Below are positions 14,972-44,746 of a stretch of DNA of 64,000 bases, in pieces. Under the pieces are notes generated by a model. It was not told the DNA's origin. It did not search any database and worked only from the letters and a program-made list of their open reading frames with translations. How positions within the stretch are numbered: the stretch's first letter is position 1; each line of letters opens with the position of its first letter. The position numbers and the translations under genes were made by a program. Source of the DNA: Fidelibacterota bacterium (GTDB taxonomy: Bacteria; Fidelibacterota; UBA8477; JABMPR01); assembly GCA_013203185.1 (NCBI GenBank), contig JABMOS010000019.1, forward strand, positions 4,405 to 68,404, read 5' to 3'.

Positions 14972-14978
14972 GAAGATC

Positions 14979-15692
14979 ATGAATTTCAAATCTCGACTAC
15001 TAACCATATCAGTTTTAAGCGTTTTGCTTAGTCACTGTATCGCACCACAAAATCCACTGGCTGGGATTGATATTCCTGAGCCTGCCAATGCCGATGAAGG
15101 CTATTATTTTTTTAGGGCTGCCAGGATCGTCCGCTTCAAGCAGACAGATGATTTACTCCAGGCTAAACTTGATCTTGAGCGGGTCATCAAAGGGGATCAA
15201 CATATTCTATATCCAGAGGCATATCCCTTTTTAGTCGAGGTTTACAATCAGCTTGAAATCAGTGATAGTTCATCTTGGATTTATCCAGAAGCCTTTGCAA
15301 AAATGGAAGCAAATCCCAAACTATCGACCAAGTATGCAGATCAGTTTAAGGGCTGGCAAGAAGCCTACCCTGAATTTCCACCAGAATTTTTAGAAAAAGA
15401 CTACAAGCTTATGGATTCAGGGGCTGAGCCTGAGGGTGGTATGCAACGGTTTTATCAAATCCTCGAGTACCCCGAAATGGCTCAGGAAATGAATCGAACT
15501 GGCGTAAGCTGGTTTGCGATCATCATCGAAGCCGACGGCACGCTTTCTGATGTTCAATTATTGAAATCCAGTTATCCTGACCTGGATGAAGCCGCCTTGA
15601 AAGCTATTAATACAAGCAACTGGGTGGCGGCCAAATACCATGAGCGACCTGTCACCTTCCAAATCATATTGCCAGTACATTTTAGACTATAG
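14979..15692 (+). CDS. TonB C-terminal domain-containing periplasmic protein
   Basis: Signal peptide. The last ~85 aa (GGMQRFYQILEYPEMAQEMNRTGVSWFAIIIEADGTLSDVQLLKSSYPDLDEAALKAINTSNWVAAKYHERPVTFQIILPVHF) fit the TonB_C pattern (YP..A...G..G.V...F.I..DG...D..V..S....LD.AA..A......W..A......PV....P..F). Confidence 0.65.
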   Translation: MNFKSRLLTISVLSVLLSHCIAPQNPLAGIDIPEPANADEGYYFFRAARIVRFKQTDDLLQAKLDLERVIKGDQHILYPEAYPFLVEVYNQLEISDSSSWIYPEAFAKMEANPKLSTKYADQFKGWQEAYPEFPPEFLEKDYKLMDSGAEPEGGMQRFYQILEYPEMAQEMNRTGVSWFAIIIEADGTLSDVQLLKSSYPDLDEAALKAINTSNWVAAKYHERPVTFQIILPVHFRL

Positions 15693-15726
15693 ATCTATTG
15701 CGCTCATCAATTTAAGGGAATGAATT

Positions 15727-17109: not shown

Positions 17110-17117
17110 TCACAAAT

Positions 17118-17192
17118 AAAAAGCCCCTCGCGTCTTCCTGAGGTGTCATGCTGAGCTTGTCGAAGTGCTCTCGAAGGACGTGAGGGGTTTTT
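17118..17192. terminator. Long hairpin terminator between convergent genes, containing a REP-like inner motif
   Basis: Outer stem CCCCTCGCGTCTT (17124..17136) pairs with AAGGACGTGAGGGG (17174..17187), followed by TTTTT and preceded by AAAA. The loop carries GTCATGCTGAGCTTGTCGAAG. Confidence 0.7.
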
Positions 17193-17209
17193 CTCATCAA
17201 AAAATTGAA

Positions 17210-20200
17210 CTATTTAAGCAGCAACAACTTCCTGGTCTGGAGGTTATTCCCAGCCTGGACGCTTAAGAGATAGAGTCCAGCACTCACAGGTCTCCCAGAC
17301 TGATTCACACCAGCCCATACCATTTCATGATAGCCTGCTTCCTGACTGTTGTGATCCCATGATTGAACTTCTCGGCCATTCACATCAAAGATCTTAACCT
17401 GAACGTCTGAATCATCAGCCAGCTCGTAGGAGATGGTTGTGGCAGGATTGAATGGATTGGGAAAGTTCTTATGCAGGGCAAACTTTGCTATGCGAAATTC
17501 GATATCTTCCAGAACAATGGAAGTTGGTGTATAAGCGGATGTATAAGGAATATCAGTAAGACGATAGTCATATTTTACACCTGGCTTAGCCGTTTTATCA
17601 TAATAGATATAATCCGTTCTGGAGCTGGTACTTCCTTGTCCCTGAAGACCTTTATCTTTGGTATGATCAGAGATGAACGTCCAGTCATCAGTGCCAGACT
17701 TACGACGCTCAAGCATGAATCCAAGATTCTCAGTTTCAGACTCAGTGGCCCACTTCAGGACCATTTGACCCTTGACTGTGGATGCATTGAAAAAGGAGAG
17801 CTCAACAGGTAACGAATTATCAGCTAATGGAAGTGTTGGACTACTTACTGCCGCTTTGTTTGAGACTACAGCCCGCATACGAAAATCATGTTCTGTTATA
17901 GCCACCCATCCAGGACCCTGATCCTTTGAAGATCTGTTACTGATATTGGTTACTGCTTTAACCAAGGTAAAGTCGCCTCCCGAAGTATTATCCAGAACCA
18001 AGTGGAAATTCGTTGTCGCCGCAACACTCACCCCAGCAGCCGTCAACGAGACATAATTCCAGGTAAACTTGGCAATATCCGCACACGGAAGTTTTACTGT
18101 AGATCCCACTTTTGTACCGGGAATCCCACTGGCATCAGACCAAATTTCAAAAGATATGGAATCACTACTTGGAACTGTTTTGTGGGGATAAAAAAAGGCT
18201 CCCGTCACATCACCAGCCCCAGCCTCCCCAGTGCTAAATTTTACCGCTTCTTTCACAGTGTTACCAAATCCTTGATAAGCCGCAGTATCAACATCCCATA
18301 CATCATATGAGAGGGTCTTATGATTCAATGAGGTGGAACCACCAGCAGCAGCCAGTGCTTCAAAAATATTTAACTTTCCATATCCCCATTCAGTGTTGGG
18401 AACTGTACCTGTATATGTATCAGTATCAGCATTTTCATATAGGAGGGTCTTGACTGATGCAGCAGAAAGTGAAGAAGTGTGCTCTAATAGCAAGGCCACA
18501 GCCCCAGAAACGGATCCTGCAGCTACACTGGTGCCCTGCTCCACATGATATTTATCTGCAACAATTTCGAAGGCAGCAGTTGGTGTATAATCTTTAGAAG
18601 TGGTTGTAATCACCCCTTGGCCATGCGTCATGATGTCTGGTTTTTGAACCCCCAGCGTACGTGTGGGTCCAAAACTACTAAAGTAAGCATGGTCATCTGT
18701 TCCGTCTGGCTCATCTACACCTGCTACGCCGAGTGTTACATAACCCCCTGTAACCTTCCACCGCCACCTGGATGCATATGCGCCAACAGTGATGGCTGAA
18801 CTGGCGCTGCCAGGAGACGCAATCGTATAATTATGATCCCCAGCATCCCCATCTGATATGGTCGCCCCCATATTACTATCGTAGTGCAACCAAGCATGAT
18901 AGATCATATCGGATGTAGAGGCAGGAGTAGTAGTATCATTCGTTAACTGTAAGGTCCAGGTACCAGCATAAATATCTGCATTCCAATCAGCTACCAGCAG
19001 CTCGGTCATCCTATCCCCATTACTGTGATCAGTAGTAATGATGTTATTCATATCAACAAGATTATCCCCAATCGCCTGCCATCCCCCTGCATCTGTGCCA
19101 CTTGTTTTTGTTTTGCTGTAGGTACTGCCTGGAGAGACCAATGTAATAGTAGCATTGTCACCACTATCCCACCACAACTCTAACTTAAATTGATTGCCAC
19201 TAGCTGCTGTATTATCTGGAATCTCTATATAAATATTTTCGGTTGAACCATCAGCCACTACTCCAGTCACATGAATGTTTTCATTCCCAGCGTTCCCAGC
19301 AGCCACCACTGCAACTCTTCCAGCAGCAGTCCCATTAGAGGTAAAAGTGTTAACCGCGGCATCAAGAGTGCTGGTCCCATCATGGGCATTGGTCTGGCTG
19401 CCTAGACTAAGATTGACAACCACAGGTTTCTCAAGATCTGCTGCAATCTCTTTAGCATAAGTCAGTGCGTCTATAACATTGTTATTCTCAAAACTATCCG
19501 CCCCTGCTCTTACCACAATAATGTCAGCCTTGGGAGCAAGCCCTTTGTATTTTCCGTTTAATGCTGAAGCGCCATTCCCCGCAGCTGCGCCAGTGACCTC
19601 AGTTCCATGTCCATTGGTATCCTTGGTCCGAACAAAACCAGGTGAGCTGGCAAATTCATTTTCAATATGTGTCTTGGTATATTCAACCCCATAATGTAGA
19701 CCAGCAAAGTCAGATCCAGCTCTTCCAGCAGGAGTTTGCTCTGCTCCAGTAGAATCTAAGGTTTGATCCCAGATATACAGAATGCGACTCGTGGTGGGTG
19801 TATCTGGATCACGGAAATCTAGGTGTGTCCAATCAATTCCTGTATCGATAACCAATACGATGACACCGGTACCCTCATAAGCCGTACCCCCTAGATAACC
19901 ATCCTGAACCAAATCAGCTCCAGATAAGCCTACCGCCAGGTCATTGAGAGGATAAAGTATGTCTCCCTGAAAAACACTGGTGACTGCGTCAATTTCGGAG
20001 AGTTGAAGCAATTGTTCCCGAGTGAGTCTGGCCGTAGAAAAACCGGGGTAGTCAGAATTGGTTTGAATCCCGGCGGCTTTCACCGCTTCAATATCTGTAC
20101 TCCTAATTGTTACCGGATACAAGACTTCCTCTGAAGGACCTTTTACTGTCCGGGCTCTTGAAAGCGGAGTATCAACTAACTGTATATCTTTTGAGCTTCT

Positions 20201-20323
20201 CTTTCCAATTACGTTCTGAAGTTCGGGAGAAAGTTTCGCCATGGAGGTTCCTTCGATACTTTTTGAAAAAAGAATTCCTGGAATCAACAGAACCAATAAT
20301 GACTTGTAAATGGGATTATTCAT
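17210..20323 (-). CDS. Large secreted S8 subtilase with T9SS C-terminal sorting domain
   Basis: Triad motifs VLVIDTGIDWTHLDF (Asp), GHGTEVTGAAAG (His), GTSVAAGSVSGAVALL (Ser). C-terminal NFPNPFNPATTISYEL...VKIFDVNGREV...GLYLLSVQAGNNLQTRKLLLLK. Signal peptide. Confidence 0.85.
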   Translation of the reverse strand: MNNPIYKSLLVLLIPGILFSKSIEGTSMAKLSPELQNVIGKRSSKDIQLVDTPLSRARTVKGPSEEVLYPVTIRSTDIEAVKAAGIQTNSDYPGFSTARLTREQLLQLSEIDAVTSVFQGDILYPLNDLAVGLSGADLVQDGYLGGTAYEGTGVIVLVIDTGIDWTHLDFRDPDTPTTSRILYIWDQTLDSTGAEQTPAGRAGSDFAGLHYGVEYTKTHIENEFASSPGFVRTKDTNGHGTEVTGAAAGNGASALNGKYKGLAPKADIIVVRAGADSFENNNVIDALTYAKEIAADLEKPVVVNLSLGSQTNAHDGTSTLDAAVNTFTSNGTAAGRVAVVAAGNAGNENIHVTGVVADGSTENIYIEIPDNTAASGNQFKLELWWDSGDNATITLVSPGSTYSKTKTSGTDAGGWQAIGDNLVDMNNIITTDHSNGDRMTELLVADWNADIYAGTWTLQLTNDTTTPASTSDMIYHAWLHYDSNMGATISDGDAGDHNYTIASPGSASSAITVGAYASRWRWKVTGGYVTLGVAGVDEPDGTDDHAYFSSFGPTRTLGVQKPDIMTHGQGVITTTSKDYTPTAAFEIVADKYHVEQGTSVAAGSVSGAVALLLEHTSSLSAASVKTLLYENADTDTYTGTVPNTEWGYGKLNIFEALAAAGGSTSLNHKTLSYDVWDVDTAAYQGFGNTVKEAVKFSTGEAGAGDVTGAFFYPHKTVPSSDSISFEIWSDASGIPGTKVGSTVKLPCADIAKFTWNYVSLTAAGVSVAATTNFHLVLDNTSGGDFTLVKAVTNISNRSSKDQGPGWVAITEHDFRMRAVVSNKAAVSSPTLPLADNSLPVELSFFNASTVKGQMVLKWATESETENLGFMLERRKSGTDDWTFISDHTKDKGLQGQGSTSSRTDYIYYDKTAKPGVKYDYRLTDIPYTSAYTPTSIVLEDIEFRIAKFALHKNFPNPFNPATTISYELADDSDVQVKIFDVNGREVQSWDHNSQEAGYHEMVWAGVNQSGRPVSAGLYLLSVQAGNNLQTRKLLLLK

Positions 20324-20663
20324 AACCTATCTCCGTCCCTGAGGGATTTGCTTTTTGTGAAATTGATCAGTACATCTTTTCATTAATTTATGTCAAAGGT
20401 CGTGCCAGCAAAAAATATCACCTATAAATGCCTATTTCTACTGCTTCTATAGAATCTGGTAATTTAGGCTGAGCAGTCACATTTGTTAAGTAAATATTGC
20501 TTATTTCGGAGTTTTGTCGGATTATGGCGACAATAAATTGCTTTTCCAGATCAACTTTGAATACAGGAAAGTAGGCCAGAGCCAAAATTTCAGAATATTT
20601 CAAACGTCCACAGAAATAAAAAAGTGTTGTTCATAACCCCCTATCCGCTTCTAGTTTTAGGGC

Positions 20664-22250
20664 ATGTTTGTGAAACGCCTCATCTGCCTTCTTTTTCTTG
20701 TATCTGCACTCTTCGCTACTGAAAAGCCCTACTGGATATTTCTTGAATCAGAACCAGGTTCTCAAGAGGTAAGACTAACACCTCGGGCAGAACAACGACT
20801 TCAATTACGTGGATCAAAAAACCCCTTCGGCAAATATGCTGTCTCTGAATCTTACCTGGATCAACTTCGGACTGCAGGGTATCAAATCAGGCACACTTCC
20901 AGGTTTCTCAATGCAGTTAGTATCATCATTCACAACCCGGAGCAGTTATCTGCACTGCAAACTTTGCCTTTTGTCCTCTCCATAAAGCCTGTGGCTAGAC
21001 AGCCGCGTGACCGCAACGAGTCTTTCTCGGATGCAAGCCGTCTTGGCAGGCCCTCAACCCTTTCCTATGGTGCATCTGCTACCCAAAACGAGATGTTAAA
21101 TATCCCCGAGATCCACAACATGGGTTATGATGGGTCAGGCATAATTGTCGGCGTGTTTGATACTGGATTTCTCACGGAGCACCCTGCTTTTGACAACCTC
21201 GACGTTCTAGCCCAATATGATTTTATCGATCACGAGGTGGATGCTTCAGGTCCAGGACATGGGCATGGCATCAACGTCCTCAGTGCGCTTGGTGGCTATT
21301 TTCCTGGCGAACTCATCGGCCCGGCCTATAAAGCAACATATCTCCTCGCTCGCACGGAAGATTCTTTCAGTGAATCCCGGGCAGAAGAGGACAATTGGGT
21401 TGCGGCTCTTGAATGGGCTGACTCCCTGGGGGTTGACATCATCTCTACCTCTCTGAACTATTTTCAAGATTTTGATGACCCCAGTGAGGATTACCCTTTT
21501 TCCGCTCTGGATGGACAAACCACCATCAGCGCCATGGCAGCCAATATTGCTGCATCTCGAGGCATTCTGGTTGTAAACTCCGCAGGAAATGAAGGCTCCT
21601 CAGCCAGCAGCATCTGGCCACCTTCTGACAGCCCCCATGTGTTGTCTGTTGGATCAGTTAACACCCAACAAGACATCTCCTACTTTTCTGGACGCGGTCC
21701 CACCTATGATGGACGCATCAAACCTGATGTGGTTGCTCAGGGAAGCCTGGTCTACTTGGCTTCAGGAACCAATGGATATATCCGAGGTAACGGGACATCC
21801 TTTTCAGCGCCCCAAATCGCAGGTCTGGCAACCCTGCTGCTTCAGGCACACCCACAGCTTTCCCCTGATTCAGTGATTTCTATTTTTAAGAATCATGGGG
21901 ACAATGCCGCTGCCCCCAATAATTCATATGGCTGGGGCATTCCTGATCTATCAAGTCTTTTTCCTGAGTTGGAAGGGAGTAGCCCAAAGAATTGCGTGAT
22001 CTACCCCAATCCCAGTGGATTTGGGGAGCTTCGAATGGTACTGTCCAATCCCATATCAACCGCTCCAGAAATGGCCACGCTTTATGACATTCAGGGAAGA
22101 GAAATTGCCGCTCTTAGCATTATCCAGGAATCGGGAAGCGTTGTAAAAACAAACATCCCTTCCAGCTTGAATCTGGCGAGTCAGTTATTAATACTCTCAG
22201 TAAAAACAAACACCGCAGTTTACTCAGGTAAATTTATTCATTTGCGGTAG
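20664..22250 (+). CDS. Secreted S8 subtilase with T9SS-type C-terminal domain
   Basis: GVFDTGF (Asp), GHGHGINVLS (His), GNGTSFSAPQIAGLATLL (Ser). C-terminal VIYPNPSG...ATLYDIQGREIA...AVYSGKFIHLR. Signal peptide. Confidence 0.8.
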   Translation: MFVKRLICLLFLVSALFATEKPYWIFLESEPGSQEVRLTPRAEQRLQLRGSKNPFGKYAVSESYLDQLRTAGYQIRHTSRFLNAVSIIIHNPEQLSALQTLPFVLSIKPVARQPRDRNESFSDASRLGRPSTLSYGASATQNEMLNIPEIHNMGYDGSGIIVGVFDTGFLTEHPAFDNLDVLAQYDFIDHEVDASGPGHGHGINVLSALGGYFPGELIGPAYKATYLLARTEDSFSESRAEEDNWVAALEWADSLGVDIISTSLNYFQDFDDPSEDYPFSALDGQTTISAMAANIAASRGILVVNSAGNEGSSASSIWPPSDSPHVLSVGSVNTQQDISYFSGRGPTYDGRIKPDVVAQGSLVYLASGTNGYIRGNGTSFSAPQIAGLATLLLQAHPQLSPDSVISIFKNHGDNAAAPNNSYGWGIPDLSSLFPELEGSSPKNCVIYPNPSGFGELRMVLSNPISTAPEMATLYDIQGREIAALSIIQESGSVVKTNIPSSLNLASQLLILSVKTNTAVYSGKFIHLR

Positions 22251-34370: not shown

Positions 34371-35189
34371 CTATTTTAAATAGACCATTTTGATTGTCTG
34401 GAACTCTCCCCCTGAAGTCAATCGACACAAATACACTCCGGATTGAATTGATTCTCCCCTGCTATTTCTGCCATCCCAACTGATTTGATGCTGACCTGCT
34501 TGCAATGTATGTTTCACCAGTGTCTGGATATGGCGACCCGTCAAATCGTATATGGTCACCTCGGCCAGTGCGGAATTTGGGAGTGTGAATTCTATTGAAG
34601 TAGATGGATTGAAAGGGTTGGGGAAATTTTGCTCCAGCGAAATTTGATTTGGAACCAGTATTGGTTCTCCATCGATACCAACAATGATGGTCAAGTCATA
34701 GCTAAGCTGCATACTGTGAAAATTAGCATGCTCTGGTGGTGAAATAGTTTCTGTGGATCCCATAAAAGGAAATACAAAGGAATATAGCGGACCCTGAGAG
34801 TGTTGATCCGTCAACTCCAGGGTCAGGGAGTAATCTCCAACAGCCACTGTATCACCGTTAACATCTGTAAAATCCCATTGAGCTGTCCTTGTACCATGGC
34901 TGGAGGATGTTGCTCCTGTTACTCCATCAACTGTATTGCCACCAGAGATAAGGTTCCATGTGTATAAATACTGACGCCGGTTATTTCCCCATACCCTCAG
35001 CGTCTTGACAAAACTGCCCGAGCTTGACTCAATCCAGATTGCACCGACGTTGCGTGGTGAAAAGTTGCCCCCAGGAGAGGATGTGGTGACTTGAAAAGCA
35101 ATGGTCATAGTAGTATCAGAGGTTTGTGCGTTCAAGGTAGCTAAGAAACACAGAGCTCCCAGAAGTAGGTGTGAAAATTTGAATGTCAT
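34371..35189 (-). CDS. DUF2271-like secreted protein with T9SS C-terminal sorting domain
   Basis: SPRNVGAIWIESSSGSFVKTLRVWG..RRQYLYTW...VDGVTGATSSSHGTRTAQWDFTDVNGDTVAVGDYSLTLELTDQH resembles DUF2271. C-terminal NFPNPFNPSTSIEFTL...VTIYDLTGRHI...GVYLCRLTSGGEFQTIKMVYLK. Start at 35189 (GGAG upstream, signal peptide MTFKFSHLLLGALCFLATLNAQ); the ORF opens at 35234. Confidence 0.65.
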   Translation of the reverse strand: MTFKFSHLLLGALCFLATLNAQTSDTTMTIAFQVTTSSPGGNFSPRNVGAIWIESSSGSFVKTLRVWGNNRRQYLYTWNLISGGNTVDGVTGATSSSHGTRTAQWDFTDVNGDTVAVGDYSLTLELTDQHSQGPLYSFVFPFMGSTETISPPEHANFHSMQLSYDLTIIVGIDGEPILVPNQISLEQNFPNPFNPSTSIEFTLPNSALAEVTIYDLTGRHIQTLVKHTLQAGQHQISWDGRNSRGESIQSGVYLCRLTSGGEFQTIKMVYLK

Positions 35190-35421
35190 GCGGATGAATC
35201 TCCAGTTTGTTTTGCCTGCAATTAAATAAATCATGCAATATGGGAGATCAACCTAAAGCTATTGACTGAATTTCTCAATTATTAAATTTCAAAAACAGGG
35301 GATAACATCTTATTGAATCAATCACCTCCTCCTTTATCTTCTTTCACTTCATGAATCTATGAAAATGGCACTATCCATGCTTTGATTGAGACCGCTGAGT
35401 AGCAGTCCAGTAAAAAGATAA

Positions 35422-37404
35422 ATGGTGAAAATGAAACAAGCTGAAGCATTAAAAAATTACGCAGCCACCCGCAAAGCCATTGGCTATGTGGAGCGGCAAA
35501 AAGCCAAACCAAAAGATTATAAACGTATCGGTTTTAAGTCAGGCTTGGAAGTTCATCAGCAACTCAAGACCAAGAGCAAACTTTTCTGTCGCTGTCCCGC
35601 TGGCATCTACCATTCAGATGATGATTTTGATGCTGAGGTTATCCGTCATATGCGCCCCACCCTGAGTGAATTGGGTGAATATGATGGCACGGCCCTCATG
35701 GAATTCAAGACCCGCAAGAATATTACCTATCGTCTCAACAACAGGAGTGCTTGCACCTATGAAGTAGATGATACTCCCCCTTTCCACATCGATCCGGAAG
35801 CTTTGGAAATTGCCATAGAAATATCACTCCTCTCCAAACTGAATATTGTTGGTGAAGTTCACATCACCCGAAAACAATATCTGGATGGCAGTATCCCAAC
35901 CGGTTTCCAGAGGACAGCAATTCTTGGTGTGGAGGGAGAGATTCAACTTAAAAATAAAAAAGTGGGCCTCATCCAGCTCAGCATAGAAGAAGATTCATGC
36001 CGGGAAATTTCTGATATTGGTCATGAAAGGATTTACAAAACTGATCGTCTCGGTATGCCTCTCATCGAAACTGTCACCCAGCCAGAGCTGGAAACACCAG
36101 ATGAGCTGGCTGAAGCAGCGGAATACATCCGCTTTTTAAACCGCAGTACCGATAAAGTTCGTACGGGTATGGGGGCAGGTCGGGAAGATGTCAATGTGAG
36201 TTGTGCCGGTGGCAGCAGGGTCGAAATAAAGGGAGTCGCCCACAACAAATGGATCCCTGAACTTTCCCATAATGAAGCATTCCGTCAATGGGCACTCCTG
36301 AACATAAAGAGGCTCATCCATGATCGGGGTATCCAACAAAATAAATGGGTAATGAGCCACAAAGAGATCGATTATTCAATGCCAGAACTTTTGGCATCTC
36401 CTCTGAGAGAGAAACTGAATCGGAGAATGAAAGTCATCGCCATTAATCTTCCGAAACTTAAAGGAATTCTCTCTCACTTTATGCAACCTGGCCACAGTTT
36501 TGCTCATGAGATTAGTCATCGCTTGAAGGTAATCGCCTGTATCGAGCGTCCCAATATGACCCATTCTGAAAGCTTTAATCCACTTCTTAGTGATGAGGAG
36601 CTGGGCAAAATTTCAAAATGGCTGGGAGCTAAGAAAGACGATGCTCAGATTGTGCTCTGGGGACCCGCTGAGGACATTCCCACTGCCCTGGAAACCGTGG
36701 AAGAACGAATCCGTATGGCCTTTGAGGGCGTTCCTGAGGAAACCCGGAAATCCCTGCCTGATGGTACAACCATCTTTGAAAGAGTTCTCCCTGGAAGTGA
36801 TCGCATGTATCCCGACACAGATTCTGCACCCATTCCTCTCACTGTAGAATTCATTGATAAGCTGGGTAAAAATTTACCCCCAGATATTGCTGATCGTTAT
36901 GCGCAGATGAAGGCGTGGGGCATTCCATCGGATACCTGGAAATATCTCCTGAGTAAAAATATGGTCCCCCTCATCGAGAAAATTTGTGAGGGGCATGGCT
37001 ATACCCACAAATTCATTGGATCCTTCCTGGGACATACTTTCAAAAACATTGAGGGAAAACGCGAATTGCACAAAAACTTCTTCTATGAAAAAACCTATGA
37101 GCTGTTTCGCTATATCAAGGAGAAGAAGCTGGAGCCAGGTATTGCTAAGTATATGATGCCAGTGATATATGAATTTCCTGACATGCAGTTTAGCTCAGTA
37201 CTTACCTCTATCCAATTCAGACAGCGCAGTATGACAGACATTATAACTCCGATAAAATTTTTGCATGAAAAGTATCTAGAGAATACACCAGAAGTGAAGC
37301 CAGGAGATGATATAAACTGGCTTATGGGTCAGGTGCATCATCAAGCTATCGGAAATGTGGAAATGGCTGATCTGAGACAAAAGATCGGGACAATAATTAA
37401 ATGA
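35422..37404 (+). CDS. gatE: Glutamyl-tRNA(Gln) amidotransferase subunit E (archaeal-type GatE)
   Basis: Blocks colinear with archaeal GatE as I recall it: GFKSGLEVHQQLKTKSKLFCRCP, RHMRPTLSELGEYD, EVDDTPPFHIDPEALEIAIEISLL, TRKQYLDGSIPTGFQRT, LSIEEDSCRE, YKTDRLGMPLIETVT, GREDVNVS..GGSRVEIKGV, GVPEETRKSLPDGTTIFERVLPGSDRMYPDTD. At 660 aa it is longer than GatB. Confidence 0.8.
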   Translation: MVKMKQAEALKNYAATRKAIGYVERQKAKPKDYKRIGFKSGLEVHQQLKTKSKLFCRCPAGIYHSDDDFDAEVIRHMRPTLSELGEYDGTALMEFKTRKNITYRLNNRSACTYEVDDTPPFHIDPEALEIAIEISLLSKLNIVGEVHITRKQYLDGSIPTGFQRTAILGVEGEIQLKNKKVGLIQLSIEEDSCREISDIGHERIYKTDRLGMPLIETVTQPELETPDELAEAAEYIRFLNRSTDKVRTGMGAGREDVNVSCAGGSRVEIKGVAHNKWIPELSHNEAFRQWALLNIKRLIHDRGIQQNKWVMSHKEIDYSMPELLASPLREKLNRRMKVIAINLPKLKGILSHFMQPGHSFAHEISHRLKVIACIERPNMTHSESFNPLLSDEELGKISKWLGAKKDDAQIVLWGPAEDIPTALETVEERIRMAFEGVPEETRKSLPDGTTIFERVLPGSDRMYPDTDSAPIPLTVEFIDKLGKNLPPDIADRYAQMKAWGIPSDTWKYLLSKNMVPLIEKICEGHGYTHKFIGSFLGHTFKNIEGKRELHKNFFYEKTYELFRYIKEKKLEPGIAKYMMPVIYEFPDMQFSSVLTSIQFRQRSMTDIITPIKFLHEKYLENTPEVKPGDDINWLMGQVHHQAIGNVEMADLRQKIGTIIK

Positions 37405-37527
37405 TATCCAGATCAACTGCAAAGGGCGCGGAGCACGCCAAGAAAGTTGTGTATAAAACCTTTGCGCTCTTCGCGAACGCTGCGGTAAAAGAGTTTTTAA
37501 TATCGAATTTGAGAGAGAAATGATTCT

Positions 37528-38913
37528 ATGAGTGATGATATTTTTCAGGGGTATAAAGGGGATGCTCTGGCGACTCTGCAGAAATTCAGTGTTCGTGTCT
37601 GGGGTCTGGTTGAAATCCATACCACCCGAGGCACTTTTGATGGAACCGTGCTCCCCCGCTCTGAAAATGATGATGATCAGCATATCGTATTGAAAATCCA
37701 AACGGGCTACAACATTGGTATCGATATTGTGACCATTGAGAAAATGGTTGAAACAGGCTACCAGAAAGCCAATTATAAAATTCCCGAAAAAGCCTTCCCC
37801 TACTCAGATGATAAACCCAATGTGAAACTTTTTGGCACAGGCGGGACCATAGCCTCACGTCTGGACTATCGAACCGGTGCTGTTATCCCAGCCTTTTCTC
37901 CAGGTGAATTATATGGTGCTGTTCCCGAGTTGGCGGATATCTGTAATATCGACACAGAAAAACTATTTGCTGTTTTCAGTGAAAATATGGGTCCTGATCA
38001 GTATATGATTCTGGCAGAAAGCATTGGCAAGGAAATCGCCAACGGCACAGATGGTATTGTCATCGGTCACGGAACCGATACCCTCCACCACACAGCAGCT
38101 GCACTTTCCTTTATGGTCCAGGATTCACCCATCCCAATTATTCTTGTAGGATCGCAACGCTCATCGGATCGACCTTCCTCAGATGCAGCTCTCAATTTGA
38201 TACACGCATCCTATGCAGCCGGGCATGGCGATATTGCAGAAACCCTGGTGTGTATGTTCGGTCCTACTTCAGATGAATATGGCTTCCTCCATCGCGGAAC
38301 CCGAGTCAGAAAAATGCATAGTTCTTATCGCTCGACCTTTCGCACCATTGGCGATACACCGGCTGCCACCGTCACCCGCCAGGGTATCAAGATGATTAAA
38401 ACGGAATACAATCACCGCCGCAAAGACAAGACAGTAAAAATTATTCCCACCTTCAATGAGAAGGTTACCATGCTCTACTATTATCCACACATGAAAGGTG
38501 ATATTGTCGATGCATTGGTAGACGCTGGGTATAAGGGAATTGTGATTGTGGGAACAGGTCTAGGCCATGTTAACCGGGAGCTTTATCCTGCTCTGGAGAG
38601 AGCCAGAGACAAGGGCGTCTCAGTCTTTATGACCCTTCAGACTATCTGGGGTTATGCTCACATGTTCGTCTATGATACGGGTCGGGACATGATGGCCCTT
38701 GGTGTGACACCCCTGGGGAACATGTTGCCTGAGGTCGCCTGGGTCAAACTGGGGTGGGCATTGGGCCAAACAGAGGATCCCATCAAAATCAAAGAAATCA
38801 TGCTCACACCTATCAATGATGATATTACTGAAAGAGAGCCCTATAATGGCTATCTTGTTTATCAGGGTGGTGTGCCTGAGGTTGAAAATTTTGTCCGTAA
38901 ATTCAGGAAATAG
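37528..38913 (+). CDS. gatD: Glutamyl-tRNA(Gln) amidotransferase subunit D (archaeal-type GatD; asparaginase-like)
   Basis: GatD-specific N-terminal domain (GTFDGTVLPRSENDDDQHIVLKIQTGYNIGIDI). Asparaginase motifs FGTGGTIASRLDYRTGAV and GHGTDTLHHTAAALSF, GSQRSSDRPSSDA. 461 aa; adjacent to gatE. Confidence 0.8.
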   Translation: MSDDIFQGYKGDALATLQKFSVRVWGLVEIHTTRGTFDGTVLPRSENDDDQHIVLKIQTGYNIGIDIVTIEKMVETGYQKANYKIPEKAFPYSDDKPNVKLFGTGGTIASRLDYRTGAVIPAFSPGELYGAVPELADICNIDTEKLFAVFSENMGPDQYMILAESIGKEIANGTDGIVIGHGTDTLHHTAAALSFMVQDSPIPIILVGSQRSSDRPSSDAALNLIHASYAAGHGDIAETLVCMFGPTSDEYGFLHRGTRVRKMHSSYRSTFRTIGDTPAATVTRQGIKMIKTEYNHRRKDKTVKIIPTFNEKVTMLYYYPHMKGDIVDALVDAGYKGIVIVGTGLGHVNRELYPALERARDKGVSVFMTLQTIWGYAHMFVYDTGRDMMALGVTPLGNMLPEVAWVKLGWALGQTEDPIKIKEIMLTPINDDITEREPYNGYLVYQGGVPEVENFVRKFRK

Positions 38914-39061
38914 CCAGTGCATATTTGTCTATTAACCCTTCGAGGGCCTCCAGTCTACGCTTTTCAGCTTCGACTTGGCTGGCAGGGAGACAAACTTTTT
39001 ACCCTGCGTCATGCTGAGGTTCTCGAAGCATGAGATTACCATTAATGAAATTATCAAGAAT

Positions 39062-40162
39062 ATGAACATACCAGACCGATCAGAATATCTCAAGGGACTT
39101 GCCCAAACAGGCCAGAAAATCATGGGTGTGTTACCTGCCCTCTATCCCAGAGAGCTACTCTGGGCTTTCGATATTCATGCAGCTGAAATTTGGGATCCAC
39201 CAGGAGAAATACTCCACGCCAATGCCCATTTGCAGACGACTATCTGCCCCGTCGTAAAAAAAAGTCTAGAATTTATCCTCAAGGAACCGCAGACCATTAA
39301 TGCAGGGTACCTCTTCCCCCATACTTGTGACTCCCTTCAAAACCTGGGCACTCAGGTCAAAGACCTTATCGGCGTTTCCCTCCCTATCTACACATTTTAC
39401 AATCCCAAAGGCCGCTTTAACAACACGACGATAAAATATTACCAGGATATCCTCATAAATTTCCAATCTATACTGGAAGCAAGCCATGGACCCCTAGAAC
39501 CAGAGAAACTGAAGGCTGCATGTGTTCTGAGTCATAAAATCGATACCTACCTCATGGTAATCCAACAGGCCCGTATGACAGATCACCTCTCTTTGAGTAA
39601 CCATGAGTATTTCACTCTCATGCGAGCTCAGGAGTACCTGCTCCCTCAAGACTATTTGAGTTTACTTGAACAGGTGAATATTCTCGAGAAACCTGCTGAA
39701 TTTTCAAGAGCAAGACTGATGGTATCGGGAATCTTACCACCACTGCCAGAAATTTTGGTGTTTCTTGATGAATTAGGCGTGAGTATCGTAGCAGATGATT
39801 TACTGGCTGTTAGTCGACGCATTCCAAAATTTGCCATGGATCCCCCTGGTTCACCTCTGGACTATTTGACAGATCGCTTCTTTGTTTTGCCACCCTGCTC
39901 TACCCGTGGGGGAGATCTTGATGAGAGAGTACATTACCTGAGTAATCGTTTGAAAGAGAGTAAAGCTCATGGTCTGCTATTCGACATGGTAAAATTCTGC
40001 GAACCTGAATTGTTTGATCATCGTCTCCTGGTGAAAACCTTTCGAGAACGAAAAACCCCTGTCTTAACCCTGGAAACTGAGCTGGAGGACCACATCTCTG
40101 GTCAGGATAAAACGCGAATAGAAGCATTTACTGAGCGTCTCTTTGAGATAGTTTCAACATGA
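39062..40162 (+). CDS. 2-hydroxyacyl-CoA dehydratase / benzoyl-CoA reductase family subunit (BcrC/BadD/HgdB family)
   Basis: Family-typical pattern (GVLPALYPRELLWAFDIH, HTCDSLQNL, PPCSTRGG, DMVKFCEPELFD). Start moved to 39062 because the 38975 extension runs through an intergenic hairpin/REP-like motif. The stop overlaps the next gene (ATGA). Confidence 0.7.
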   Translation: MNIPDRSEYLKGLAQTGQKIMGVLPALYPRELLWAFDIHAAEIWDPPGEILHANAHLQTTICPVVKKSLEFILKEPQTINAGYLFPHTCDSLQNLGTQVKDLIGVSLPIYTFYNPKGRFNNTTIKYYQDILINFQSILEASHGPLEPEKLKAACVLSHKIDTYLMVIQQARMTDHLSLSNHEYFTLMRAQEYLLPQDYLSLLEQVNILEKPAEFSRARLMVSGILPPLPEILVFLDELGVSIVADDLLAVSRRIPKFAMDPPGSPLDYLTDRFFVLPPCSTRGGDLDERVHYLSNRLKESKAHGLLFDMVKFCEPELFDHRLLVKTFRERKTPVLTLETELEDHISGQDKTRIEAFTERLFEIVST

Positions 40163-41481
40163 GTATCAGAGCAGAATTAAAATATAAAATCATGAAAGAT
40201 TATGGTGCTCCGGTCCTCATGGCATTTCAGAATGTCAGGAGGCGGAAACCCCGTCCCACCCCAGCGGCATTTGGATCACCTTTGGATTCAAATCAACGTT
40301 TAAAAGAAATTCTCAGTCGTCATTACTTTCTCTCCAGGTATGCACCTGGTGTCAAAAAAGTAGCCTGGGTAACCAGTGGCGCTCCAGTGGAACTCCTGCG
40401 AGCCTTTGATTTCTATACCATATATCCTGAAAACCATTCGGCTCTGGTGGGAGCCAAAAAACAGGGTGCTGACTACTGTGGAATTGCCGAAGGAGATGGT
40501 TTTAGCCAGGATTTATGTTCCTATGCCCGTATCGATCTGGGACATATGCTGTCCGGGAAAACGCCGGCTGGAAAGCTTCCCAAACCAGACCTGCTGTTTT
40601 GCTCAAACAACATCTGTCAAACCGTCCTGTATTGGTACAAAGCCATTGCTCATGAACTTGATATTCCTCTGATCCATTTTGATGCTCCCTTTGTTACCAC
40701 GGAGCAGACTGAAGCTGATATTAATTATATGGCTCAGCAACTACAGGATATGATCCCTATCCTTGAGCGGGTATCAGGACGGGTATTTTATCTGAATATT
40801 TTTGAAGAAATCCTAGAGCGCTCCATGGAGACTTCAAAGACCTGGGGTGCCATCCTAGATGCCATGAAGGCTCAACCTGCGCCCATGACTATCTTTGATG
40901 CCTTTGGTCATCTTGCGCCCATCGTTTCCCTCCGTGGACTGCCCGTTGCCCAGGATTACTATCATATATTGATGGATGAGATCAATACGCGAGTCACTCA
41001 GGGAATTGGGGCCATCAGTGATGAGCGCTACCGCTTGATCTGGGACAATATTGCCATCTGGTACAAGGTTCGATTTTTGGCTACCTTTTTTGCTGAGAGA
41101 AAAATGAATTTTGTCACCGCCACCTATACCAATGCCTGGGCTGAGACAACAGGATATCTTGATGTAAAAGATCCCTGGAGGTCAATGGCTAAAACCTATG
41201 GACAAATCATTCTGAATAACAATTTAAAGCATCGTTTGGATTTGATGAAAGGAATGATCAAAACCTATGCAGTAGATGGAATGGTCATGCATTCAACCCG
41301 AAGCTGTAAACCCTATTCTGTGGGTCAATTTGATTTACGCAAAGCCATCACGGCTGACCTCGATCTGCCTGCAGTTATTCTGGATGCTGACATCGCTGAC
41401 GAAAGGGTCTGGTCAGAGCAGCAGATTCAAACTCGCCTGGAAGCCTTTTGTGAAACCCTGGAAGGATCAAAATATGGCTGA
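40159..41481 (+). CDS. 2-hydroxyacyl-CoA dehydratase family subunit (HgdA-like partner subunit)
   Basis: VAWVTSGAPVELLRAFDFYTIYPENH, DLCSYARIDLG, SNNICQTV, VMHSTRSCKPYSVGQ are conserved Cys-containing blocks of the HgdA/HgdB family. Translationally coupled on both sides. Confidence 0.7.
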   Translation: MSIRAELKYKIMKDYGAPVLMAFQNVRRRKPRPTPAAFGSPLDSNQRLKEILSRHYFLSRYAPGVKKVAWVTSGAPVELLRAFDFYTIYPENHSALVGAKKQGADYCGIAEGDGFSQDLCSYARIDLGHMLSGKTPAGKLPKPDLLFCSNNICQTVLYWYKAIAHELDIPLIHFDAPFVTTEQTEADINYMAQQLQDMIPILERVSGRVFYLNIFEEILERSMETSKTWGAILDAMKAQPAPMTIFDAFGHLAPIVSLRGLPVAQDYYHILMDEINTRVTQGIGAISDERYRLIWDNIAIWYKVRFLATFFAERKMNFVTATYTNAWAETTGYLDVKDPWRSMAKTYGQIILNNNLKHRLDLMKGMIKTYAVDGMVMHSTRSCKPYSVGQFDLRKAITADLDLPAVILDADIADERVWSEQQIQTRLEAFCETLEGSKYG

Positions 41482-42283
41482 TCTGTATTTCTCTGGCGTG
41501 GATGTAGGTTCACTCAGTACTGATGTTTCCATCATTGATCATGGAGGGAAGGTGCTTTCTGAAATTGTCATCCCCACAGGTGTCAACGGTTCTGAAGCAG
41601 CTGAACAAGCATTTAACGCTGCCCTGAAACTAGCCGATCTCACCCGGGATAGCATCACAGGCATCACCGCCACGGGCTATGGACGCGCTTCTGTGGCTTT
41701 TGCCACTGGGAAAACGACTGAAATCAGTTGCCATGGTGTTGGTGCCCATCACCTGTTCCCAAAGACAGGCACCGTAATCGATATTGGCGGGCAGGACAGT
41801 AAGGTGATTCAAATTGACAGGCAGGGTCGCATGCTTGATTTTACCATGAACGATAAGTGTGCCGCTGGAACAGGTCGTTTTCTCGAGGTCATGGCCAACC
41901 GCCTGGATCTTAATCTGGATGAATTGAGTAGTCCTCTAAATATTGAAGGAGATTCCGCCCCTATCAGTAGCACTTGTACTGTTTTTGCTGAGAGTGAGGT
42001 CATCTCCTTGCTGGCCAAAAACACCCCGCGCAAAGAAATTGTACATGGTCTGCAACGTTCAATCGTAAACCGGATCTGGAGTATGGTCACCTCAATTGGT
42101 ATTGAAGGCGAAGTGACCTTGACTGGAGGGGTTGCCCATAATAAGGGTCTGGTAGCACTGTTGGAGGAGAAACTGGGCCTTACTTTAAATATTCCAGAAA
42201 ACCCACAGACTGTGGGTGCCCTGGGCGGTGCTCATATAGCCCGTAGAACTTATCAAAACAGTCTGGAAGCAGATTCAATTTAA
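41474..42283 (+). CDS. ATP-dependent [4Fe-4S] activase of the BcrAD/BadFG/HgdC family
   Basis: Start MADLYFSGVDVGSLSTD (ASKHA phosphate-1 motif) at 41474, overlapping the upstream stop (ATGGCTGA). DIGGQDSKVI, cluster-ligand blocks DKCAAGTGRFLE and STCTVFAESEVISL, GGVAHNKGLV. The 41276 ORF start is an out-of-context upstream extension. Confidence 0.85.
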   Translation: MADLYFSGVDVGSLSTDVSIIDHGGKVLSEIVIPTGVNGSEAAEQAFNAALKLADLTRDSITGITATGYGRASVAFATGKTTEISCHGVGAHHLFPKTGTVIDIGGQDSKVIQIDRQGRMLDFTMNDKCAAGTGRFLEVMANRLDLNLDELSSPLNIEGDSAPISSTCTVFAESEVISLLAKNTPRKEIVHGLQRSIVNRIWSMVTSIGIEGEVTLTGGVAHNKGLVALLEEKLGLTLNIPENPQTVGALGGAHIARRTYQNSLEADSI

Positions 42284-42333
42284 CCATTCAGGAACTTCTG
42301 GGGTCAAAGAGGTTAAATACAAAGAGGTGCGAT

Positions 42334-42822
42334 ATGAAATTTAGCAAACTTATTATACTGGTACTTATCCTTACAATAACTGTACAGGCCAGCCCCCGCT
42401 CAAGAAGAAATCACCATCACCCTGTGAGAAATTATCATCACTCCTATTACCCCCATCGTTACAACAACTACTATTCAGCATATGGATACTATGGCTATTA
42501 TTCTAGACCCGTTGTGGTCACCACCCAATCCACTACCACATATCCAACTAATCTGGTGGCAATTACTGCCGAAAGTGTGGCCGAAGATATTGGCGCATTA
42601 AATGGTATGGTGACCCGTGGTGTGATTAGTGAAAAGGATTTTGAACGAGCCAAGAAGACACTTCTCAACCGCATCGGTATGTCTATGAATCCAGATGCTC
42701 AAGTAGCAACTACTGAAGAATTGATTGGACAAATCGAAACATTGCACCAGATGCACTCACGACAACTCATCACTGAAAAAGAGTACAAGAAACAAAAAAA
42801 TAAACTGTTGGCAATGATTTAG
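42334..42822 (+). CDS. Secreted protein with His/Tyr/Arg-rich region and two SHOCT-like C-terminal repeats
   Basis: Signal peptide. RSRRNHHHPVRNYHHSYYPHRYNNYYSAYGYYGYYSRP. Two repeats of the SHOCT-type pattern (GVISEKDFERAKKTLLNRI; QLITEKEYKKQKNKLLAMI). Confidence 0.55.
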   Translation: MKFSKLIILVLILTITVQASPRSRRNHHHPVRNYHHSYYPHRYNNYYSAYGYYGYYSRPVVVTTQSTTTYPTNLVAITAESVAEDIGALNGMVTRGVISEKDFERAKKTLLNRIGMSMNPDAQVATTEELIGQIETLHQMHSRQLITEKEYKKQKNKLLAMI

Positions 42823-42826
42823 TCGA

Positions 42827-43609
42827 TTACTCATAAACAACATCAGTTATCTCTACATCCACATAGGTAAAGTCATTTTTGGGAAATTTCCAGATTGCCC
42901 GTCCCCTGACTCCCAGGCGTAGCCCTCCCATCTCCTCATATTTATCAACAGGTGTCACCCAGGGTCTCAGAACCATGTCTTTACCTTCAGTAGCATAGCG
43001 ATCACATTCAAAACGGGTGATTTGACCAATCTCATTGAAGTAAAAGACTCCTTCAACAGATTTTTTATCTATGGTAAAAGTTGCCTTTGCTGAAAGGGAG
43101 TCCCCTGCTTCCCAGGAAATGTGATCATCCAGTAATGCCTGGGGGAACCAGATTATCTCAGAAAGGTAGCGTGTCATGGCACCCTGGTCCATTTCAGGTC
43201 CTTTGGCATTTACCAGTGGAATAAGTCCAAAAAGTTTAATCTTCATACTACCGCACCCATCTCTAAGAGCGTCTGTGCCTTTAACGATTACAAGAGGGGC
43301 CATTTTCATTCGAACTTTCCACTCAAATGATGCCTCAGCTATATTGTAAATCTGGGTTGCTTTAAAGGGAGTCCAGGATTTGTCTGGAGCCATTTTAAAC
43401 AATCCGGTCTGCTTGATTGTGGCCTTTTTGATGTAGGGTGTTCCCACGACCTGGCTATACTCCATAAAGCGTTTTACCGGCTCAGGCAGTTTTTCCAGAT
43501 CTGATACTTGAATAATTCCTCGATTGTCTTCCATATGACTTCCCCTTCCCCAGATCGTTAGACTGATCATGAGGGTTAAAATGACAATTTTTAAACCTTT
43601 AGTTTTCAT
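42827..43609 (-). CDS. Secreted hypothetical protein (DUF6544-like, unverified)
   Basis: Signal peptide. LPEPVKRFMEYSQVVG ... FEWKVRMKMAPL..VKGTDAL.DG.GSMKIKLFGLIPLVNAKGPEMDQGAMTRYLSEIIWFPQALL resembles my recollection of DUF6544. Co-oriented with MarR and 2 nt downstream of it. Confidence 0.4.
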   Translation of the reverse strand: MKTKGLKIVILTLMISLTIWGRGSHMEDNRGIIQVSDLEKLPEPVKRFMEYSQVVGTPYIKKATIKQTGLFKMAPDKSWTPFKATQIYNIAEASFEWKVRMKMAPLVIVKGTDALRDGCGSMKIKLFGLIPLVNAKGPEMDQGAMTRYLSEIIWFPQALLDDHISWEAGDSLSAKATFTIDKKSVEGVFYFNEIGQITRFECDRYATEGKDMVLRPWVTPVDKYEEMGGLRLGVRGRAIWKFPKNDFTYVDVEITDVVYE

Positions 43610-43611
43610 GA

Positions 43612-44070
43612 TTATACACCCAATTTTTCAGCGCTGATGCTGATGAGTTTTGCAATAGTGTCTCGGGTGGTTATGATATCCTCAAGACGTACATCCCCAA
43701 AAAGAGAGCTGATATAACCTTCATCTTGTTCTACTCTGGACTCCCAGACATCGGCATTCTTTTGAGTCAGACGGAAACGGAGAATGCGCTTATCTGAAGC
43801 GTCCTGGAAAATCTCGAGAAAGCCTGATTTTTCCAGACTGGAAGCCAGTTGTTTCACATTCTGCCGCGAAGACCCCATGACCTGAGTCAATTGATTCAGG
43901 GTTGGCGGTACTTTAAAAAAAACGTGGAGGGTCACGAGGAGTAGCCACTGCTTGGTGGTAACCCCTATGCTGGCCAATTCCTGATCCCCCAAATTTTGCC
44001 ACCGCTGTGCCAGCAAAAATATCATTCCAAAAATCTCTTTTTTATGTTCTAAACTCTGATCTGCGATCAT
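43612..44070 (-). CDS. MarR family transcriptional regulator
   Basis: Winged-HTH block TTKQWLLLVTLHV...PTLNQLTQVMGSSRQNVKQLASSLEKSGFLEIFQDASDKRILRFRLTQKN; 152 aa. Confidence 0.85.
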   Translation of the reverse strand: MIADQSLEHKKEIFGMIFLLAQRWQNLGDQELASIGVTTKQWLLLVTLHVFFKVPPTLNQLTQVMGSSRQNVKQLASSLEKSGFLEIFQDASDKRILRFRLTQKNADVWESRVEQDEGYISSLFGDVRLEDIITTRDTIAKLISISAEKLGV

Positions 44071-44084
44071 ACCACCTCCATTTT

Positions 44085-44100
44085 ATGCAATATATTGCAT
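44085..44100. promoter_or_regulatory. Candidate MarR operator in divergent promoter region
   Basis: Perfect 16-bp AT-rich palindrome ATGCAATATATTGCAT, 15 bp upstream of the marR start. It is followed by a degenerate copy, TATGTAATATGTTAC. Confidence 0.55.
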
Positions 44101-44206
44101 ATTTATGTAATATGTTACCTTTTTCTTTTATTTTATAGATATTTCTTGAGTTCTGGTGCATGGTGGTTAGCATGCGTGGGTCAGAAATGTCTTAAAGGAA
44201 ACGACC

Positions 44207-44746
44207 ATGTACCCCTATCTCAGAACTGTAAAAACCATAATCGCAGCCAAATATCGTAACTCACTGAATTTTGGTGACACCGGTATTTTACATCTCCGAG
44301 CGCGCTTAACTGACATTGACCACTATGGCGAAATCAATAACGGAAGGCAATTGACTCTCATGGATCTGGGACGTTATGATCTTGGGGTTCGGGGTGGTTT
44401 AATGGAACTCATCTCAGAAAAGAAATGGGGGTTTGCAGTTGGCGGGTCAAGCATTCGCTATCGCCGCAGAATAACCCTGTGGAAAAAGTTCCAATTGCAT
44501 AGTGAAGTCATCGGTCACGATGGACGATGGTTCTACTTTCTCCAAAAATTGTGTCAGGGAAAAACTATCTGCTCCTCCGCGCTGATCAAGGCTGGGGTCG
44601 TTTCAAAAAATGGATTGGTTCCTGCTGCGAAGGTCATGGAAGAATTTCCAGGTAATACCTGGACGGGTGAATTACCTGACTGGGTTAAAGCCTGGATTGA
44701 TGCGGAAAGCCAGCGACCCTGGCCTGCAAATCCCCCCAAATATTAG
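44207..44746 (+). CDS. Hotdog-fold acyl-CoA thioesterase-like protein
   Basis: LTDIDHYGEINNGRQLTLMDLGRYDL..R.G...........AVGGSSIRYRRRITLWKKFQL...VIG.DGRWFYF pattern is typical of 4HBT-type thioesterases. Confidence 0.55.
   Translation: MYPYLRTVKTIIAAKYRNSLNFGDTGILHLRARLTDIDHYGEINNGRQLTLMDLGRYDLGVRGGLMELISEKKWGFAVGGSSIRYRRRITLWKKFQLHSEVIGHDGRWFYFLQKLCQGKTICSSALIKAGVVSKNGLVPAAKVMEEFPGNTWTGELPDWVKAWIDAESQRPWPANPPKY

Follow-up and report, generated by a model that had tools for sequence, protein, structure and literature searches.

Enzymes of the benzoyl-CoA reductase/2-hydroxyacyl-CoA dehydratase (BCR/HAD) superfamily combine two homologous subunits of the HGD-D fold with an ATPase of the BcrAD/BadFG family. 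In Clostridioides difficile's (R)-2-hydroxyisocaproyl-CoA dehydratase (HadBC with HadI; PDB 3O3M/3O3N and 4EHT), an alpha-beta heterodimer of HGD-D subunits is served by one separate activator gene, and HadC binds a single cubane plus an extra sulfide (PMC11971306, PMC7317905). The (R)-2-hydroxyglutaryl-CoA dehydratase of Acidaminococcus fermentans and Clostridium symbiosum (HgdAB with HgdC; PDB 1HUX for HgdC) has the same architecture. Class I benzoyl-CoA reductases (BzdNOPQ and MbdONPQ; PDB 8S02, 9G87 and 9GAI) also depend on ATP-driven electron injection; the catalytic aqua-[4Fe-4S] cluster of BzdO is held by Cys95, Cys128 and Cys380, with identical coordination in HadB (PMC11971306). Stand-alone pairs of enzyme and activator, without pathway context, are represented by the double-cubane cluster protein (DCCP) and DCCP-R of Carboxydothermus hydrogenoformans (PDB 6ENO and 7YYL) and by YjiM/YjiL of E. 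coli. DCCP is a homodimer of one subunit with the seven-Cys motif CX19CX18-19CX29CX166-170CX32-34CX32C, and its [8Fe-9S] double cubane has six ligands (PMC7317905). Here we analyze a trio of genes at positions 39062-42283 of a 64-kb stretch of DNA (the window) from a Marinimicrobia metagenome-assembled genome (MAG; 3.07 Mb, 155 contigs, 82% complete). The trio is predicted to encode a complete two-component radical enzyme of the BCR/HAD superfamily, and this enzyme appears to belong to a distinct, uncharacterized clade whose members invariably occur as a free-standing unit of beta, alpha and activase genes. We lean slightly towards a ketyl-radical dehydratase-type reaction, or the reverse hydration, on an acyl-CoA or acyl thioester.

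The first gene of the trio (39062..40162, + strand) encodes the putative beta (accessory, electron-storing) subunit of 366 aa (Pfam HGD-D, 167 bits), the second (40159..41481, +) the putative alpha (catalytic) subunit of 440 aa (HGD-D, 234 bits), and the third (41474..42283, +) the activase, an ATP-dependent activator or "archerase" of the ASKHA fold with 269 aa (Pfam BcrAD_BadFG, 195 bits). The three overlapping open reading frames (ORFs) lie on the same strand where the preliminary description of this DNA had placed them, and the two overlaps it reported are real: beta and alpha share an ATGA at 40159-40162, while alpha and the activase share ATGGCTGA at 41474-41481. The activase starts at 41474 rather than at the ATG further upstream in its long ORF, and the beta start at 39062 is backed by eight relatives whose ORFs permit only 365-366 aa. 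Against the NCBIfam model for acyl-CoA dehydratase activases (TIGR00241), the activase scores 262 bits with a cut-off of 125. Pfam and NCBIfam scores far over the cut-offs thus bear out the initial assignment of two HGD-D subunits plus an ATP-dependent activator, which is the hallmark of the superfamily. The module holds a single BcrAD_BadFG ATPase gene, and its HGD-D pair is the only one in the genome.

Cysteines that could bind Fe-S clusters are conserved throughout the clade, as had been noticed for all three window proteins, and no core ligand is lost. In alignments of 74 alpha, 65 beta and 56 activase sequences, the invariant Cys residues are C107, C120, C153 and C383 of alpha (74/74), C62, C89, C279 and C313 of beta (all 65 sequences), and C86, C129 and C168 of the activase (56/56). 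Alpha C120, C153 and C383 (codons 40516-40518, 40615-40617 and 41305-41307; this and all following codons on the + strand) align with BzdO Cys95/128/380 and with HadB C84/C117/C346, and alpha appears to retain a [4Fe-4S] site built from three Cys ligands and one open iron. In the activase, C129 (41858-41860, motif MNDKCAAGTGRF) and C168 (41975-41977, motif SSTCTVFAESEV) align with the Cys of the bridging [4Fe-4S] cluster; both motifs are common to HgdC, HadI and MbdQ, and they would give the activator two Cys per monomer for such a cluster. From the Cys census, the proposed cluster ligands of beta are C62 (39245-39247), C89 (39326-39328) and C313 (39998-40000); C279 (39896-39898) is a Cys in HadC as well and has no equivalent in HgdB. 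When beta is aligned with the double-cubane proteins, the six ligand positions fall on P25, C62, C89, L248, C279 and C313. The window protein therefore has Cys at four of the six, the same four as HadC, with P25 and L248 replacing the others, and lacks the six-Cys [8Fe-9S] site of the BzdN type. Because this is the pattern of HadC, and HadC holds a single cubane, the window enzyme is predicted to be of the dehydratase type: alpha-beta would contain two single cubanes, and the activator dimer a third. In the active site of alpha, W70 corresponds to BzdO Trp46, E91 to Glu65 and Y122 to Tyr97, which binds the thioester, and all three are invariant in a 17-sequence clade alignment; because HadB also has them, they do not separate a reductase from a dehydratase. 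The position of BzdO His131 is Val156 in alpha, and MbdO likewise has no His there.

Among structures in the PDB, alpha matches HadB best (223 bits, ~33% identity), followed by MbdO and BzdO (~140 bits, 24-26% identity) and then DCCP, which reaches only 27-37 bits with the window proteins. The best match of beta is HadC (3o3m_B, 87 bits), and the activase matches MbdQ (222 bits), HadI (204 bits) and HgdC (194 bits). An AlphaFold2 model of alpha (pLDDT 74, pTM 0.77) was compared with known structures using Foldseek, and HadB was again the best match, with template modelling (TM) scores of 0.82/0.90 as opposed to 0.77-0.79 for BzdO and MbdO; the fold also matches that of DCCP. These likenesses stop well short of orthology. 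With the NCBIfam equivalog model for HadB, alpha reaches 283 bits (cut-off 750), and the two HGD-D subunits score 74 and 57 bits against the double_cubane model (cut-off 350); they are two different subunits, neither with the full DCCP motif. A HMMER scan over 1.84 billion representatives returned 2120 family members. In a maximum-likelihood tree of 90 alpha sequences, among which FldBC and LcdAB do not figure, the window protein groups with Marinimicrobia and Desulfobacterota proteins (support 100), with four metagenomic clusters as sister (99). HadB and HgdA share a different, nine-row clade (support 100), and MbdO and its relatives form the outgroup (support 100). On this tree, alpha does not cluster with a characterized enzyme, the outcome that would have spoken against the preliminary description, and it does not appear to be an orthologue of any characterized enzyme among those compared, a set without Fld and Lcd. 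A literature search found no paper characterizing the window's clade.

The distribution of the clade was determined among 200 sampled genomes of the phylum, counting as orthologues proteins with 59% identity or more. Of the 22 genomes from the window's genus, 19 had an orthologue; outside the genus, orthologues were confined to two of the four sampled genomes of one other Marinimicrobia family. A further 26 genomes of the phylum had only distant paralogues, 30-37% identical to the window alpha. Many of these ~26 Marinimicrobia carry two alpha-like genes ~5 kb apart; examples of these different HGD-D systems are G123:C5:61574-68038, G170:C20:5353-11697 and G164:C22:3919-10258. A protein search gave >3000 homologues, including ~62%-identity, 437-aa orthologues from Desulfobacterota MAGs and 80-94% identical ones from Marinimicrobia. 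Judged by these sequences, the clade, which roughly 190 species genomes carry, seems to occur mainly in Desulfobacterota, plus two separate Marinimicrobia lineages. A tree built from 73 members of the clade recovers the window's genus as a single group with a long stem branch (0.99 substitutions per site) and places the second Marinimicrobia lineage among Desulfobacterota, which suggests separate transfers. The trio is under strong purifying selection: ratios of nonsynonymous to synonymous substitution rates (dN/dS) against congeners are 0.03-0.04 for alpha, 0.03-0.06 for the activase and 0.08-0.09 for beta.

To compare neighbourhoods, genes were called at 80 species-level loci and the neighbours were clustered. 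The beta-alpha-activase trio is the sole unit common to these loci, with beta in 66 and the activase in 59 of 78 loci; where one is missing, this is mostly due to a contig end or to miscalled genes in high-GC sequence. Because the trio alone is conserved, the orphan status first proposed for the window module is a property of the whole clade, and the sister clade likewise stands alone. In the sister clade, a Ser/Thr protein kinase gene adjoins the beta-alpha pair or lies two genes off in three of four loci, and in one locus it overlaps the beta start. Over-long alpha matches in three loci (L030, L036 and L062) are due to the paralogous beta gene or a duplicated fragment rather than to inteins.

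From these comparisons we infer how the electron travels, that the substrate is a thioester and that the chemistry is of the dehydratase type, and the following sequence of events seems most plausible. The activator would act as a homodimeric ASKHA ATPase whose [4Fe-4S] cluster is bridged by C129 and C168 from each monomer and is reduced by ferredoxin. Upon ATP hydrolysis, it would pass one low-potential electron into the beta [4Fe-4S] cluster (C62, C89 and C313), from which the electron would move to the catalytic alpha [4Fe-4S] cluster (C120, C153 and C383) with its one open iron. The compound reduced there to a ketyl-type radical would be an acyl thioester, in all likelihood an ester of CoA, with Y122 and Y323 holding it. 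With HAD-like chemistry, which we consider most likely, a 2-hydroxyacyl-CoA would lose its alpha-hydroxyl to give an enoyl-CoA, or the reverse would take place, and the electron would be recycled. Reduced ferredoxin and CoA esters should be available, because the genome encodes pyruvate:ferredoxin oxidoreductase, two further 2-oxoacid:ferredoxin oxidoreductases, CoA-transferases and an ADP-forming acyl-CoA synthetase.

The module had been described as lacking a CoA-transferase partner, which holds for its neighbourhood but not genome-wide. Among those ORFs of the 64-kb window that were annotated (not all of the window's ORFs were run against Pfam), there is no gene for a CoA-transferase, a 2-hydroxyacid dehydrogenase, an acyl-CoA dehydrogenase or an electron transfer flavoprotein (ETF), in line with the reported absence of the usual companions. 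The window thus differs from the Had system, with its linked hadA-type CoA-transferase, ldhA-type dehydrogenase and acdB-etfBA, and it has nothing comparable to the gctAB and gcd genes that sit with hgd (locus L130). Elsewhere in the genome there are CoA-transferases, namely a family I pair on contig C16 and two AcetylCoA_hydro-type (Cat1-type) enzymes on C106 and C59, together with four acyl-CoA dehydrogenases and one ETF pair. The family I pair lies in a cluster (G000 contig C16:3326-8896) of a 538-aa KamA-like protein, CoA-transferase A and B, a class III aminotransferase and a thiolase, with an XRE/cupin regulator ahead; this looks like a lysine or beta-amino-acid fermentation module, the names beyond the CoA_trans Pfam matches having been assigned by reading. 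One of the AcetylCoA_hydro-type transferases adjoins an alanine dehydrogenase (AlaDH)-like gene and a 2-oxoacid:ferredoxin oxidoreductase. The combination of a substrate-making CoA-transferase and an (R)-2-hydroxyacid dehydrogenase was not found, although the other CoA-transferase types do exist. The only other above-cut-off BcrAD_BadFG match in the genome is a 1436-aa ORF with two such domains (G000 contig C21:16083-20393, +). It has no HGD-D match and looks like a fused double activase, a second ATP-driven Fe-S system of the activase type that is unrelated to the module.

Two chemistries can be considered for the window enzyme, and we favour a dehydratase, with a probability a little better than even, over an ATP-dependent two-electron reductase of the BCR or DCCP kind acting on an unsaturated or aromatic thioester or another low-potential substrate, which we regard as possible but clearly less probable. 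The dehydratase reading draws on the single activase gene, as in HADs and in place of the two ATPase genes of the Bzd and Mbd systems, on a beta Cys pattern that matches HadC exactly, on a valine instead of the His131 equivalent, on the invariant Y122, and on an alpha that is nearer to HadB (223 bits, TM 0.82/0.90) than to BzdO/MbdO (~140 bits, TM 0.78). Sequence and tree also assign the clade to the HADs, the BCRs being the outgroup. As another difference from the Bzd and Mbd systems, there are no aromatic-degradation genes in the window. Several observations weigh on the other side. The window clade stands apart from HadB and HgdA, the sole characterized dehydratases in the tree, and ~70 other representative clusters are nearer to the window alpha than HadB; leaving aside its own cluster, the nearest ones share 45-48% identity with it, and the cluster of HadB comes in 74th place, with 33%. 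In length, alpha resembles BzdO and MbdO: it has an N-terminal extension of ~40 residues with a predicted helix at residues 3-24, HadB is shorter there by ~40, and the Foldseek alignment covers 439 columns with BzdO, spanning the entire 440-residue protein including this helix, versus 405 with HadB. No pathway gene is consistently linked to the module across the 80 loci, so that it is a stand-alone module like the DCCP/DCCP-R pairs (PMC7317905). A family III CoA-transferase (CoA_transf_3, the HadA/FldA type) was found in none of 23 genus genomes, the window's included. Because the only D-2-hydroxyacid dehydrogenase in the genus is SerA-like (~526 aa; not found in this 82%-complete MAG), there is no clear sign of the usual way of making an (R)-2-hydroxyacyl-CoA. 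The retained equivalents of BzdO Trp46, Tyr97 and the catalytic Glu65 might be added in support of a reductase if HadB did not share them.

The remaining point in favour of a reductase comes from additional cysteines in the Desulfobacterota orthologues (loci L024-L087, compared with window 39062-41481 and given in window numbering). Alpha C97 is present in 52/53 and C44 in 38/53 of the Desulfobacterota-type sequences, and among the beta sequences C109 occurs in 40/44, C77 in 25/44 and C250 in 36/44. The loop that holds C250 is of equal length, and C250 is two residues away from one of the double-cubane ligand positions; MbdN has a Cys aligned with C109. Their presence in most Desulfobacterota orthologues hints at a larger cluster and a reductase-type ancestral chemistry, which likewise counts against a dehydratase. 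On the other hand, all five are missing from the window's genus (0/17), which has conserved Cys of its own (alpha C148 and C431; beta C154). The extra Cys could denote a larger cluster in the Desulfobacterota enzymes, or their absence could be the mere loss of dispensable Cys under oxygen exposure. They also form the basis of a more tentative proposal, which we rate somewhat below the reductase: the clade might be a third functional type of the BCR/HAD superfamily, a self-contained ATP-driven Fe-S enzyme without dedicated pathway genes that acts on some common metabolite of marine anaerobes, a thioester or otherwise, and whose set of clusters has changed within a single orthologous group. In that case, the Desulfobacterota-type members with the five extra Cys may hold a larger, double-cubane-like cluster, and the window's genus would have lost all five on its long stem, leaving the HadC-type pattern.

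Two further explanations are much less probable. The trio might be an ordinary dehydratase of the Had, Hgd, Lcd or Fld type, serving Stickland-type or glutamate fermentation with a CoA-transferase and a dehydrogenase encoded elsewhere. The genome does contain a family I CoA-transferase pair, two Cat1-type transferases, four acyl-CoA dehydrogenases and an ETF pair; one Desulfobacterota lineage has acyl-CoA dehydrogenase and ETF genes after the module and a CoA_transf_3 gene 8 kb away; and FldBC and LcdAB lie outside the comparison. However, the score of alpha with the HadB equivalog model is far under the cut-off, its identity to HadB is only ~33%, and it falls outside the strongly supported clade of HadB and HgdA. 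The candidate transferases also have other company, the family I pair in the KamA-like/aminotransferase/thiolase cluster and one Cat1-type enzyme with the AlaDH-like gene and the 2-oxoacid oxidoreductase, and CoA_transf_3 is absent from all 23 genus genomes. We therefore consider this explanation improbable. Even less credit is given to the idea that the module was acquired horizontally and survives in the window's lineage as a non-functional relic. Its patchy occurrence in the phylum (the window's genus and two of the four sampled genomes of one other family), the long stem branch of the genus clade (0.99) and the loss of five Cys that are conserved in Desulfobacterota would fit such a history. 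Against it stand dN/dS values of 0.03-0.09 across the three genes, intact frames with translational coupling, retention in 19 of 22 congeners, and the preservation of every core ligand. Gene integrity, family, ligand conservation, selection, clade placement and the lack of linked pathway genes are all direct observations.

In the window, the module is flanked by gatD upstream and by a gene for a SHOCT protein downstream, as initially reported. The upstream genes are gatE-gatD (35422..38913, +), encoding an archaeal-type Glu-tRNA(Gln) amidotransferase (NCBIfam GatE 460 bits, GatD 484 bits), and the gap from gatD to beta is 148 nt. The position next to gatD is correct for the window but lineage-specific. 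Adjacency of gatE-gatD is limited to 11 loci of close relatives forming one sub-lineage of the genus, while L019 and L006 have genes for tryptophanase (TnaA) and an S8 peptidase instead, and gatDE was rejected as a partner. In L019, the module is immediately preceded by hydrolase, TnaA and S8 peptidase genes; these genes are found 17 kb upstream of it in the window, where positions 14102-22250 were compared with L006/L019 for this arrangement. The ~13 kb between them in the window hold a TetR/OMF/MFP/RND efflux operon, a selenoprotein gene and a gene for a 1236-aa fusion protein, followed by gatED. Tryptophanase was also rejected as a partner: it is adjacent in some congeners, yet it occurs in 134 of 201 phylum genomes regardless of the module.

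The SHOCT-domain protein (42334..42822, +; Pfam SHOCT), 50 nt 3' of the activase, has a signal-like N-terminus and a His/Tyr-rich segment. In the window's genus, nearly every complete locus has this gene next after the activase (13 loci), and no Desulfobacterota locus does; its dN/dS is 0.07-0.10. It is a conserved neighbour in the window's genus only, and we treat it as context. Convergent with the module is a gene for a DUF6544/DUF6920 protein (42827..43609, -; Pfam 259 and 232 bits), also context only, which adjoins the module in about half of the genus loci, in both sub-lineages, and is confined to the genus. A hotdog-fold 4HBT_2 thioesterase (44207..44746, +; Pfam 4HBT_2, 51 bits) is encoded 2 kb downstream; members of its family recur at most a few genes away from the module, in the window as well as in L008, L009, L010, L012 and L016, but not in the L019 sub-lineage. 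As a speculation, it might free the acid from the CoA product, and we treat it as context only. The downstream genes also include a MarR regulator. A promoter and terminator scan of 35000-44500 found fewer sites than in shuffled sequence and is therefore uninformative. The annotated window genes are mostly for secreted S8 peptidases, proteins tagged for type IX secretion (T9SS), TonB, tryptophanase and efflux systems, and surroundings rich in secreted peptidases fit amino-acid catabolism.

Some Desulfobacterota loci have neighbours of a different kind. In five loci of Desulfobacteraceae (L041, L044, L048, L077 and L083), a class I/II aminotransferase gene is directly 3' of the activase, and in three of them (L044, L077 and L083) a CN_hydrolase gene comes next. 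The pair resembles the couple of glutamine transaminase and omega-amidase and hints at a link of the module with 2-oxo-acid/amino-acid interconversion in that lineage. In another Desulfobacterota lineage, a class V aminotransferase gene is directly downstream of the module. As general partners these aminotransferases were rejected; they are suggestive but occur only in related loci and are absent from the window.

The oxygen sensitivity of such chemistry had been taken to imply an anoxic or micro-oxic lifestyle, an argument that carries little weight. The genome has two haem-copper oxidase genes (G000 C8:25537-27654 and C97:15980-17677), which is why we regard the organism as micro-oxic or facultative rather than as a strict anaerobe. 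One of the two encodes a 705-aa protein with the haem c motif CFNCH, resembling a CcoN-CcoO fusion; it is presumably a high-affinity oxidase of the cbb3 type, and the organism can probably respire oxygen at low tension. Tryptophanase, which had been cited in support, is uninformative on lifestyle, being present in those 134 of 201 genomes with or without the module. The tags of the closest relatives (BS150m, SI036/SI053 bins and BH) we take, from the tags alone, to refer to oxygen-deficient marine basins.

The few BCR/HAD enzymes that have been studied leave most of the superfamily's sequence diversity uncovered, as the ~70 clusters nearer to the window alpha than HadB illustrate. The clade described here provides a tractable pair of orthologues with and without the extra Cys, and their comparison could link cluster type to chemistry. 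Under the more tentative remodelling proposal, the Cys loss could be a live case of the sub-cluster loss proposed for dehydratases arising from reductases; alternatively, exposed cysteines may have been purged in a lineage that encounters oxygen. Oxygen-deficient ocean water harbours Marinimicrobia in abundance. A strongly selected, ATP-primed radical enzyme that is present genus-wide in one of their lineages and also in marine sulfate reducers would point to an unrecognized anaerobic reaction in marine carbon or amino-acid turnover.

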